Assembly (NCBI GenBank): GCA_963921275.4
Contig: OZ001293.3
Span: 3,328,001-3,392,000 of the forward strand
DNA: 64,000 bases
Origin: an uncultured Hormoscilla sp.
GTDB taxonomy: Bacteria > Cyanobacteriota > Cyanobacteriia > Cyanobacteriales > Desertifilaceae
Reading direction: 5' to 3'
The number at the start of each line of letters is the position of its first letter. Positions within the stretch are counted from its first letter, which is position 1. Positions 22,987 through 25,784 of this stretch are shown piece after piece. The position numbers and the translations under genes were made by a program. The notes beneath the pieces were generated by a model. It did not search any database, was not told the origin of the DNA, and saw only the letters and a list, made by a program, of their open reading frames with translations.

Positions 22987-25784
22987 ATGGAAAAACATCT
23001 GAATGCCGGTGATTATGCGGCCCTGAAGGCTCTCTATGAAAGTACTGGGAGGGCGAATTGGTACAATCACAGTGGCTGGGCTGACTGGGATTTCGGCAGC
23101 GAAACTCCTCCGCCTGCTTATTTGGTTCGCAGTTGGCATGGGGTGGAAGTAATAGGGAACAGGGTGACTTATTTCGATCTGGACTGGAACCACCTGACTG
23201 GGTCGATCCCCTCAGAGTTGGGCAATATGGAATATTTGGAAAACCTCCATCTGGCCAACAACAAACTGACTGGGTCGATCCCCCTAGAGTTGGGCAGTGC
23301 GATTCGTTCTAGTCTAACGTGGGCAACTACGGAACGCTAGGCCAGGTCCAAACTGGTAACTCTGGTATTCATGGGGGTTAGATTCCCTCTTTCCAAGTGT
23401 GGGAGTAACACCGGTCCTTAGTGCTGCTGAGTCACATTACGGTGGTGCGGAGCAAGGACTTAAATGTAGGATAGCTAGCAGCCTAAGCTAGTGACGCCGC
23501 TAGGAAAGATGCTAATGGCTAGAACAAGCGAACCTGTGTACGCCTCGTTATCTAGAACCAGCGAAATAAGGCTTAAAGCGCTGGCCCAAAAGGGAAATGG
23601 TAGTTTGTGCTGATTCTTGCACTTGGCCAGTATCGCACTCTAAGAACTCCCGGGGTATAGCAGGGGCCTAAAAGCATCGTGAAATGATACTAGGGAACGA
23701 AGTAACTTTTCGTGTGCTGTCTAGATTGGACAAGTTAGATGTAAAGCGCAAGCCGCGAGGGGAGAGATAGCCCGAGAAGCTAATGCCTAGGGTAACGCCT
23801 ATGGATATGATGGGGTGTTCCTCATCGAGCTGACGCGGGTTGGTTAAAGTAGGAAATCTTGGGTAAGAGTATCTCTAAGACGCCGGAGGCCTCTCGAAGG
23901 TTGGATGACTGGTAAAACAGACTTGGAAATGGTAATACTAAAGGTTATCTGGCAGCGCCGCTTACCAACCAGGAAAGGAGTGAAATCGCATGAGATGAGG
24001 GACAAGTGGAGCAATCCGTAGTAATCCTAGTAGTGACAATGCCCTACTTGCCAGTAGCCGGATGCGGTGAAAGTCGCACGTCCGGTTCCGAATGGGAGGG
24101 TTAGGGGGTGACCCCTAGCTCGACCCCGACTATTTGTCCAATTTGGTAGTCCTCCATCTGGACAACAACAAATTGACAGGGTCGATACCCTCAGAGTTGG
24201 GCAATTTGTCCAATTTGGTAGTCCTCCATCTGGACGGGAACCACCTGACTGGGTCGATCCCCTCAGAGTTGAGCAATATGGAATATTTGGAAAACCTCCA
24301 TCTGGCCAACAACAAACTGACTGGGTCGATCCCCCTAGAGTTGGGCAGTGCGATTCGTTCTAGTCTAACGTGGGCAACTACGGAACGCTAGGCCAAATCC
24401 AAACTGGTAACTCTGGTATTCATGGGGGTTAGATTCCCTCTCTCCAAGTGTGGGAGTAACACCGGTCCTTAGTGCTGCTGAGTCACATCACGGTGGTGCG
24501 GAGCAAGGACTTAAATGTAGGATAGCTAGCAGCCTAAGCTAGTGACGCCGCTAGGAAAGATGCTAATGGCTAGAACAAGCGAACCTGTGTACGCCTCGTT
24601 ATCTAGAACCAGCGAAATAAGGCTTAAAGCGCTGGCCCAAAAGGGAAATGGTAGTTTGTGCTGGTTCTTGCACTTGGCCAGTATCGCACTCTAAGAACTC
24701 CCGGGGTATAGCAGGGGCCTAAAAGCATCGTGAAATGATACTAGGGAACGAAGTAACTTCTCGTGTGCTGTCTAGATTGGACAAGTTAGATGTAAAGCGC
24801 AAGCCGCGAGGGGAGAGATAGCCCGAGAAGCTAATGCCTAGGGTAACGCCTATGGATATGATGGGGTGTTCCTCATCCAGCTGACGCGGGTTGGTTAAAG
24901 TAGGAAATCTTGGGTAAGAGTATCTCTAAGACGCCGGAGGCCTCTCGAAGGTTGGATGACTGGTAAAACAGACTTGGAAATGGTAATACTAAAGGTTATC
25001 TGGCAGCGCCGCTTACCAACCAGGAAAGGAGTGAAATCGCATGAGATGAGGGACAAGTGGAGCAATCCGTAGTAATCCTAGTAGTGACAATGCCCTACTT
25101 GCCAGTAGCCGGATGCGGTGAAAGTCGCACGTCCGGTTCCGAATGGGAGGGTTAGGGGGTGACCCCTAGCTCGACCCCGACTATTTGTCCAATTTGGTAG
25201 TCCTCCATCTGGACAACAACAAATTGACAGGGTCGATACCCTCAGAGTTGGGCAATTTGTCCAGTTTGCGATCCCTCTATCTGGACAACAACCAACTGAC
25301 AGGGTCGATCCCCTCAGAGTTTGGCAATATGGACAATTTGGGACGCCTCCGTCTAAACAACAACCAATTGACAGGGGAGTGGAGTGACAAGCAGTGGAAT
25401 GAAAACCGGACTTTAGTGGTATTGGAGGCCCAGGATCACTCTGACAGGATCTTCTTAAACATTGAGATTGAAGAAGGAGACGAGTTTGATCGAGAAAGGG
25501 TAAGGGAGGTGGCGGTCGTCGATGAACGCAGTCACGCGAGGATGTACTTCAATGATGTCTCTATTTTGGCGGTAAACTTGGACATCACTCAAGTAAACTT
25601 GGACATCATTGAAGACCAACCCCCCAGAGAACCCGGACAACAGGTAGACTTTAAAGACATTGGGTTTCAAACAGACTTAGGATACACGTTGAGTTACGCG
25701 GCATGGGGGATAACTGGTTTGACTTCAGTGGAGAAGAAATCTTCTTGGGGAGTAATTTCGATCCCAAAGTGGATTCCGCACTGA
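22987..25784 (+). CDS. Plant-receptor-type LRR protein in three exons (22987-23296, 24132-24347, 25183-25784; 375 aa after splicing)
   Basis: ALKALYESTG..W..W.GV LRR N-cap and 24-aa LxLxxNxLTGSIPxELGN repeats; both intron removals rebuild GGC A|AT TTG (G-N-L) in frame. Confidence 0.9.
23297..24131 (+). mobile_element. ORF-less group II intron, copy 1 (835 nt)
   Basis: GTGCGATTCGTT start; DV AGCCGGATGCGGTGAAAGTCGCACGTCCGGTTC at about 24056-24088; ends CTCGACCCCGACT. Confidence 0.95.
24348..25182 (+). mobile_element. ORF-less group II intron, copy 2 (835 nt)
   Basis: Near-identical to copy 1 (about 7 substitutions seen), same boundaries. Confidence 0.95.

Follow-up and report, generated by a model that had tools for sequence, protein, structure and literature searches.

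Bacterial genes that are split by several group II introns without an open reading frame (ORF), and genomes in which such introns have multiplied into swarms, are already known (PMC4143802, PMC2882425). Here we describe a locus of this kind in 64,000 nucleotides (nt) of an uncultured Hormoscilla sp., a stretch referred to below as the window, in which a gene for a leucine-rich repeat (LRR) protein carries two almost identical ORF-less group II introns. The window covers positions 3328001-3392000 of contig OZ001293.3 (C1; 6.88 Mb), and the genome amounts to 7.03 Mb in 7 contigs with 47.4% G+C. Coordinates given without a contig name are those of the window. The twist at the LRR locus is that identical intron copies were probably made by duplication within a repeat-protein gene.

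In Trichodesmium erythraeum the dnaN gene holds four ORF-less group II introns, and split RNA-seq reads show that 17 introns in 10 genes are spliced (Pfreundt et al. 2014, PMC4143802). The LRR gene resembles dnaN: both are bacterial genes for proteins, interrupted by several group II introns that lack a maturase, and each of these introns needs to be removed. It differs in two respects from what is described there (PMC4143802). Splicing was seen by RNA-seq in Trichodesmium, whereas here it is predicted from sequence, and the LRR introns are near-identical, occupy homologous positions of a coding repeat and lie inside a tandem DNA duplication.

Thermosynechococcus elongatus has 28 group II introns of 85-100% identity, among them the ORF-less TeI3 and the ORF-bearing TeI4, of group IIB1 (CL) (Mohr, Ghanem and Lambowitz 2010, PMC2882425). 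Both are cyanobacterial genomes with multiplied, closely related and mostly ORF-less group II introns, which fall into families by their exon-binding site (EBS) sequences (PMC2882425); the likeness to TeI3 and TeI4 is drawn from published descriptions. The ORF-less copies of T. elongatus are thought to rely on proteins of ORF-bearing relatives (PMC2882425), and the same is proposed here. The scale is different, as one subfamily alone has 72 copies at an identity of at least 98.8% in the present genome, where 231 copies align end to end, against 28 introns in T. elongatus. In its section 7, the T. elongatus account describes no twin copies made by duplication in one gene (PMC2882425).

Alternative splicing equivalent to that of nuclear introns, i.e. 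retained introns, skipped exons and alternate splice sites, was described as unreported for group II introns by McNeil, Simon and Zimmerly in 2013 (PMC3919590). In the surface-layer gene of Clostridium tetani a single group II intron makes use of several 5' exons that lie upstream, through a 5' splice site that is shifted (PMC3919590). A first-pass annotation of the window had named this gene as a precedent, and it is one as far as alternative splicing by a bacterial group II intron is concerned; in both cases the intron resides in a gene for a surface or repeat-type protein, and alternative joinings would give in-frame isoforms. The precedent does not extend to the mechanism. Where C. tetani uses one intron and a shifted 5' site (PMC3919590), the LRR gene has two complete introns, each with the canonical GUGCG, and the hypothetical event is exon skipping.

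Exon skipping is described between tandem group I introns, namely in phage Twort orf142 and in Coxiella 23S rRNA (PMC10136302), and two identical tandem Tetrahymena group I introns gave both skipping and inclusion in E. coli (PMC10136302; PMC3073962). The arrangement of the Twort orf142 type, two similar introns around a short exon, is the nearest mechanistic analogue of the skipping proposed here, where the introns differ at 7 of 835 positions and the exon measures 216 nt. Unlike these cases, however, the LRR introns belong to group II, the middle exon has 216 nt instead of 23-34 nt, and skipping, which was seen by reverse transcription PCR for the group I introns (PMC10136302), is a hypothetical event read off the DNA. 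Literature searches combining group II introns with leucine-rich repeats in cyanobacteria, or with tandem duplication, returned nothing on such a locus.

The intron pair and the LRR gene

The locus is probably one species-specific LRR gene that holds the same ORF-less group II intron, very young and high in copy number, twice, both copies going back to one insertion followed by duplication of a block. The gene lies on the forward strand, as do all its parts. Exon 1 (22987-23296, 310 nt) starts with an ATG at 22987, encodes an N-terminal cap and LRR units 1 and 2 (Pfam LRR_1) and ends with ...GGC A in codon phase 1. It is followed by intron 1 (23297-24131), by exon 2 (24132-24347, 216 nt), which consists of three LRR units of 24 amino acids (aa) with matches to LRR_1, LRR_4 and LRR_8, and by intron 2 (24348-25182), the second copy of the same 835-nt element. 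Exon 3, in the frame found in the window, covers 25183-25784 (602 nt; ORF 25185-25784, TGA at 25782-25784) and contributes three further LRR units with Pfam LRR family matches and an orphan C-terminal domain. Matches to LRR families above the Pfam cut-offs are found in all three exons, and 24-residue units of the form LxxLxLxxNxL run in tandem and in register. The N-terminal cap region is present at 41 loci of the genome.

The first-pass annotation had reported two 835-nt introns on the sense strand at equivalent positions of the LRR unit, 1051 nt apart, and this is what the sequence contains. Its computation of the products was likewise correct. In-silico joining of exons 1, 2 and 3 gives a protein of 375 aa, joining of exons 1 and 3 keeps the frame and gives 303 aa with the three LRRs of the middle exon left out, and the unspliced RNA has a stop after 117 aa, 14 codons inside intron 1. 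The 375-aa product ends in an out-of-frame tail, caused by a 1-nt frameshift relative to a paralog described below.

By their sequence hallmarks and guide loops, the two elements are genuine group II introns, as had been proposed. Both match Rfam family RF00029 (group II domain V/VI) on the forward strand, at 24053-24130 and 25104-25181, each scoring 46.6 bits, above the gathering score of 40; the alignment of the LRR introns shows AGCCGGAUGCG...CGUCCGGUU. GTGCG is found at the 5' end of both (23297 and 24348). The longest sense ORF in either intron has 50 aa, so that there is no intron-encoded protein in domain IV.

The boundaries were taken from the 72 genomic copies. The 5' end GTGCGATT is present in 72 of the 72 copies and the 3' end CCCCGACT in 70, and since the flanks of the copies diverge exactly at these points, the limits of the intron are fixed without reference to the LRR gene. 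The family ends in ...CU; the usual 3' end of group II introns is AY. Domain V carries the AGC triad, which in intron 1 lies at 24056-24058, and the hairpins of domains V and VI are also found in the predicted fold. In this fold domain VI is a stem of 10 bp, in which the candidate branch point A24123 (A25174 in intron 2) stays unpaired, within an internal GA/GA loop at a distance of 8 nt from the 3' end. The segment UCGACCCC, which holds the candidate branch point, sits opposite the consensus cCUACCCc in the Rfam alignment.

EBS1 is UGCACU at intron positions 322-327, corresponding to 23618-23623 in intron 1 and 24669-24674 in intron 2. As DNA (TGCACT) it is the exact complement of the AGTGCA target, the intron-binding site (IBS1). 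A diverged subfamily has AGACTC facing GAGTCT instead, with 739 of 858 cells paired over 143 distinct diverged copies, and the assignment of EBS1 is confirmed by this covariation across subfamilies. EBS2 is UCUAG at intron positions 255-259 (23551-23555 in intron 1), facing CTAGA at -13 to -9, and this loop alters together with IBS2 between subfamilies. Within the 835-nt family itself, pairing is found in 298 of 366 cells for EBS1 and in 212 of 305 for EBS2. Two other candidates for EBS2, at intron positions 12-18 and 424-430, were dropped, as 21-38% of their cells were paired in the diverged copies.

Among 61 distinct insertion contexts the family shares AA(T/C)TAGA at -15 to -9, AGTG(C/T)A at -6 to -1 and A at +1. 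The latter, found in 56 of the 61 contexts, is compatible with an EBS3 or a delta' contact. For the site in the LRR gene (CUAGA...UGGGCA before the intron, A after it), 4 of 6 bases match EBS1 and 5 of 5 match EBS2 as pairs, giving 9 of 11 in total, which equals the family median.

A probable duplication of the intron-bearing block

Positions 23174-24212 and 24225-25263, which are offset by 1051 nt, have 10 mismatches in 1039 nt. Measured along the locus, identity at this offset is 0.92-1.0 from 23175 to approximately 24200, falls to approximately 0.8, the level of LRR units among each other, and is random outside. The gene thus has two tandem units of 1051 bp (23174-25275), each made up of part of an LRR, the intron and LRRs. 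The repeat is not confined to the intron. It takes in 123 nt of the upstream exon with 3 mismatches and 81 nt of the downstream exon with none, whereas other LRR units are approximately 80% alike.

Exon 2 is a mosaic of the same sequences. Its first part (24132-24212) is identical to the start of exon 3 (25183-25263; 81 of 81 positions) and its last part (24225-24347) is nearly that of the end of exon 1 (23174-23296; 120 of 123). Between these lies a joint of 12 nt (24213-24224), which repeats 24141-24152 of a neighbouring LRR unit.

A paralog, at C1:3262341-3264138, lies upstream at a distance of 88 kb. It shares the cap, as well as the intron and its site, and has one unit instead of two. 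Two overlapping parts of the locus align with it, 22976-24325 at 97.4% and 24224-26044 at 95.7% identity, and its spliced frame is intact with 320 aa.

One insertion and a subsequent tandem duplication are favoured because the repeat extends into the exons, because exon 2 is entirely duplicated sequence and because the paralog has a single unit. The intron would have inserted once, into LRR unit 2, and unequal homologous recombination between LRR units would then have duplicated the block of intron and three LRRs. The single-intron paralog would represent the architecture before duplication; the reverse history, a deletion in the paralog, is possible. The 'twin introns' of the first-pass annotation had suggested two insertions, which the evidence does not favour: it points to one, carried along by the 1051-bp tandem duplication.

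The intron family in the genome

A BLAST search with intron 1 against its own genome gave 656 high-scoring segment pairs. Of the 88 matches over the full query, 72 have an identity of at least 98.8%, and these form the family referred to here. The mean pairwise difference among the 72 copies is only 2.8 in 835 nt, from which we conclude that the family has spread very recently.

Proteins that could act on these introns are encoded elsewhere in the genome. It has 75 matches to the GIIM maturase domain, all above the Pfam cut-off, among them an open protein of 592 aa with RVT_N, RVT_1, GIIM and HNH domains. When 5' and 3' intron halves were paired in search of an ORF-bearing parent, 7 candidates were obtained, only one of which has a long ORF (609 aa); its ribozyme is 65% identical. 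One intron-encoded protein is reportedly able to assist the splicing of multiple similar introns, judging by the title of Meng et al. 2005.

Precise removal of the intron in silico restores an open frame of at least 150 codons in the sense direction at 21 of the 72 copies and in the antisense direction at 6. The hosts include an alpha-2-macroglobulin-like protein and a type ISP restriction enzyme. A ferredoxin-type glutamate synthase (C1:5579209-5584759) is split by an 835-nt intron between its GATase_2 and central domains, and removal of the intron gives 1572 codons. These cases agree with the boundaries as drawn and suggest that sense insertions of the 835-nt intron are tolerated. A second glutamate synthase, 40-46% identical to the one that is split, is encoded at C1:1317630-1322192.

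The 231 copies which align end to end form 26 pairs of neighbours on the same strand within 4 kb. Only two of the 26 have an open frame through both junctions and a non-empty middle exon, i.e. the LRR pair and a pentapeptide-repeat gene at C1:6725628-6727774 on the reverse strand. The latter has two ORF-less introns of an 871-nt subfamily, which differ at 1 nt and surround an in-frame middle exon of 405 nt. They stand at similar repeat positions, and since their flanks are alike over only about 30-40 nt, we regard them as independent insertions. The gene is a second candidate substrate for exon skipping.

Other intron arrangements were also seen. Full-length introns of the approximately 871-nt subfamily follow each other head to tail with no spacer at two places, three of them at C1:5447656-5450268 on the forward strand and two at C1:824934-826675 on the reverse strand. 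The window has a third group II intron at 36061-36965 on the reverse strand (RF00029 at 36057-36134 with 42.1 bits), approximately 75% identical to the 835-nt family and with no long ORF nearby. In addition, a 462-nt intron piece at 7814-8275, on the reverse strand, is 82.6% identical to intron positions 61-513.

Two features stand apart from the introns. An RNA of the HEARO family (RF02033) was matched at 46273-46490 on the forward strand with 89.9 bits against a gathering score of 83. Contig C3 (31420 nt) has 17.6% G+C compared to 47.4% for the chromosome and may be foreign DNA or contamination.

Alternative explanations and consequences

A number of points weigh against the history of one insertion and a block duplication, or against the expectation that the introns are spliced with help from elsewhere. 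The three LRR-borne introns, two here and one in the paralog, share no private variant. The two introns of the LRR gene differ from that of the paralog at 2-5 of 835 positions (0.2-0.6%), less than exon 1 differs from its counterpart (6 of 309 nt, approximately 2%); a single old insertion would account for this, and so would later homing or gene conversion. The intron occupies each of the 3 places in the genome where CTAGAGTTGGGCA occurs, and efficient homing would give the same result. The 12-nt joint is no simple product of a crossover between exon 3 and exon 1, so that more than one step of recombination or conversion is needed. The two-copy state rests on this one assembly. Because the 72-copy repeat breaks them up, contigs from the DNA runs X1, X2 and X5 do not reach across the locus, and those of X1 and X2 have zero depth in the bin 24213-24313, the sole stretch diagnostic for two copies, although such a coverage hole proves nothing. 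As to splicing, both the excision of the LRR introns and its dependence on maturases in trans are predictions. A polyA RNA run from a study of another organism (X24) gave 0 reads at the locus, which is no test of splicing. The ribozyme of the closest ORF-bearing intron found with the intron 1 query is only about 65% identical to it, and the restored open frames are a weak sign of splicing, because the family is so young that inactivated hosts would not yet have decayed.

With the same contigs, which do not bridge the locus, no intron-less joint was seen in X1, X2 or X5. Neither the joint in exon 2 nor the end of exon 1 had a match (0 in each case) in exact-pattern searches of genome and metagenome contig collections, from which records of this genome were possibly left out.

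One other explanation is that the LRR gene is a pseudogene, its introns are parasitic and any splicing is inconsequential. We consider this unlikely, though several observations speak for it. At a run of G residues (25705-25709) the gene is 1 nt short of the frame of the paralog, and its conserved tail at the C-terminus is thereby cut short. The frame of the paralog-type C-terminus (...VIQF and stop) continues as a 51-aa ORF at 25703-25858. This ORF can be aligned to the paralog's final 49 residues, from which it differs at 7 aa, and is no longer in frame with the remainder of the gene. The shift is not an assembly error, because short-read contigs of X1 and X2 equal the window over 25550-25797 without differences or gaps, and these runs, in which positions 25342 and 25383 have different letters, come from a strain other than the one assembled. 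Within the family of 72 copies, intron 1 belongs to the 5 most diverged. It has 6 differences from the family consensus, compared to 3 in intron 2, and its 4 private changes hit conserved positions, at which 76-81 of 82 diverged relatives agree. Among the four is G317A, which is 5 nt upstream of EBS1 and is read as lying in the stem that closes the EBS1 loop. Under one insertion and a block duplication, too, the gene may be decaying, with the frameshift near its 3' end and the four changes at conserved ribozyme positions.

The C-terminal domain bears on the same question. While exon 1 has 96% aa identity with that of the paralog, the region 25377-25858 is 82.6% identical in DNA to C1:3263680-3264138, and the sequence on either side of it is 97-99% identical. 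Over 100 codons the two differ at 39 nt and 23 aa, with a ratio of nonsynonymous to synonymous change (dN/dS) of approximately 1.0, which would suit a dead gene. Against this, four of the five indels relative to the paralog are in frame (6, 3, 12 and 3 nt), which argues for coding constraint in the past, all exons are otherwise open and the frameshift takes away only some 50 residues at the end. The pattern looks like fast divergence of a sequence that is still coding and suggests a hypervariable C-terminal domain, or gene conversion of its flanks.

Relatives of the C-terminal domain were not found in the collections searched. As a protein query it had none in 60 related genomes, and a word-based search of 5.8 billion proteins gave two matches only, both on a contig with the length of C1 of this genome (6879066 nt). 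There was no confirmed relative in JGI metagenome contigs and no usable match in the ESM Atlas. The structure model of the region has a mean predicted local distance difference test score (pLDDT) of 38.5 and is unusable.

Upstream of the gene, a consensus scan found no sigma-70-like promoter on the forward strand, which would also suit a dead gene, as would a transposon-like element 40 nt before the ATG. The scan is a crude consensus match, however, and its total count was no higher than in shuffled sequences, which makes it uninformative. The element has 197 nt (22751-22947) and terminal inverted repeats seen by eye (TAGTCCGGACAGTT ... AACTGTCCGGAGTA). One copy of 99.5% identity is found at C1:3129041-3129237 and approximately 25 more at 69-80%; it looks like a miniature inverted-repeat transposable element (MITE). 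A terminator-like hairpin is located inside it at 22804-22819. The LRR gene is furthermore flanked by two different arrays of 21-nt tandem repeats, at 22253-22378 and 26784-26888. The second array encodes SNSEETV repeats within a 450-aa ORF (26260-27612) that has no Pfam match.

A different order of events was also considered, in which LRR units were duplicated first and the active intron then retrohomed separately into both target sites and into the paralog. This would account for the full occupancy of CTAGAGTTGGGCA (3 of 3), for the absence of a private variant common to the three LRR-borne introns, each of which is near the family consensus, and for an intron divergence below that of exon 1. 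The LRR site is a target of median quality, and the pentapeptide-repeat gene, with flanks alike over about 30-40 nt only, is a case in this genome of independent insertions at equivalent repeat positions. Even so, separate homing would still need an equally recent prior duplication of the LRR block, as the flanks are identical at 201 of 204 positions, and it adds events without explaining more. Exon 2 is moreover made solely of duplicated sequence. We hold this order to be improbable.

Insertion once and duplication of the block thus remains the preferred history, and its consequences can be considered at the level of RNA and of DNA. A full-length protein would require excision of both introns, and this would most likely rely on reverse transcriptase/maturase proteins from other introns of the genome, since the LRR introns encode none. 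As for the in-frame exon, the frame arithmetic of the first-pass annotation holds, but an exon in frame is no sign of design. Wherever insertions occupy equivalent positions of a coding repeat, the frame is bound to be kept, so that the 216-nt exon would be a consequence of the 72-nt LRR period and not a device; the pentapeptide-repeat gene behaves alike. A length-variable LRR protein, which had also been suggested, is more plausible at the DNA level than at the RNA level. By general knowledge of homologous recombination, direct repeats of 1039 nt are the more likely source of any change of length. Variation in the number of LRRs would then arise most readily by gain or loss of the 1051-bp unit through recombination between these repeats, which are 99% identical.

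Exon skipping between the near-identical introns is physically conceivable by analogy, because identical tandem Tetrahymena group I introns do it in E. coli and group I introns offer cases in nature as well. It would be an occasional, unregulated side reaction. That the introns cross-assemble, with the 5' exon at the site of intron 1 and the core and 3' site of intron 2, such that both the 375-aa and the 303-aa protein are made, we regard as quite improbable.

A splicing switch would go further. The 5' site of intron 1 would be joined to the 3' site of intron 2 to give functional isoforms of 375 and 303 aa, or splicing would gate expression of the gene. Both products keep the frame, the near-identical introns make assembly across introns physically conceivable, and the changes of intron 1 at conserved positions could favour use of the core of intron 2. 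However, the in-frame spacing is automatic for a coding repeat, the arrangement, which the paralog lacks, goes back no further than a very recent duplication, and the gene is frameshifted. With 216 nt, the middle exon is longer than those of the group I cases (23-34 nt). According to McNeil et al. 2013 (PMC3919590), exon skipping was unreported for group II introns, and the titles listed in a literature search on exon skipping in bacteria included no natural group II case. Such a switch is very improbable in our opinion, and the regulatory reading of the intron pair is without support so far.

It is scarcely credible that the true locus has a single intron and that the assembler wrote the 1051-bp unit twice: the bin diagnostic for the two-copy form has no depth in X1 and X2, where letters specific to exon 2 were not seen as variants on exon 1 either, but the two units show 10 differences over 1039 positions and have a joint with a sequence of its own, the 6.88-Mb C1 resolves 72 near-identical repeats of 835 nt, which we take to imply long reads spanning 2 kb, and X1 and X2 do not represent the assembled strain.

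Taken as one insertion and a block duplication, the LRR locus is a predictable by-product of the heavy intron load of this genome, with no sign of a regulatory device. Where an intron swarm meets a repeat-protein gene, unequal recombination would copy the intron passively, and the direct repeats of kilobase length produced in this way would make the length of the gene unstable. At the same time, a natural transcript in which an in-frame exon stands between two identical group II introns is a ready substrate for asking about exon skipping by this class of introns. If the two introns do cross-assemble, group II introns would be seen for the first time to skip an exon in nature, in a gene whose repeat number is also unstable in the DNA.

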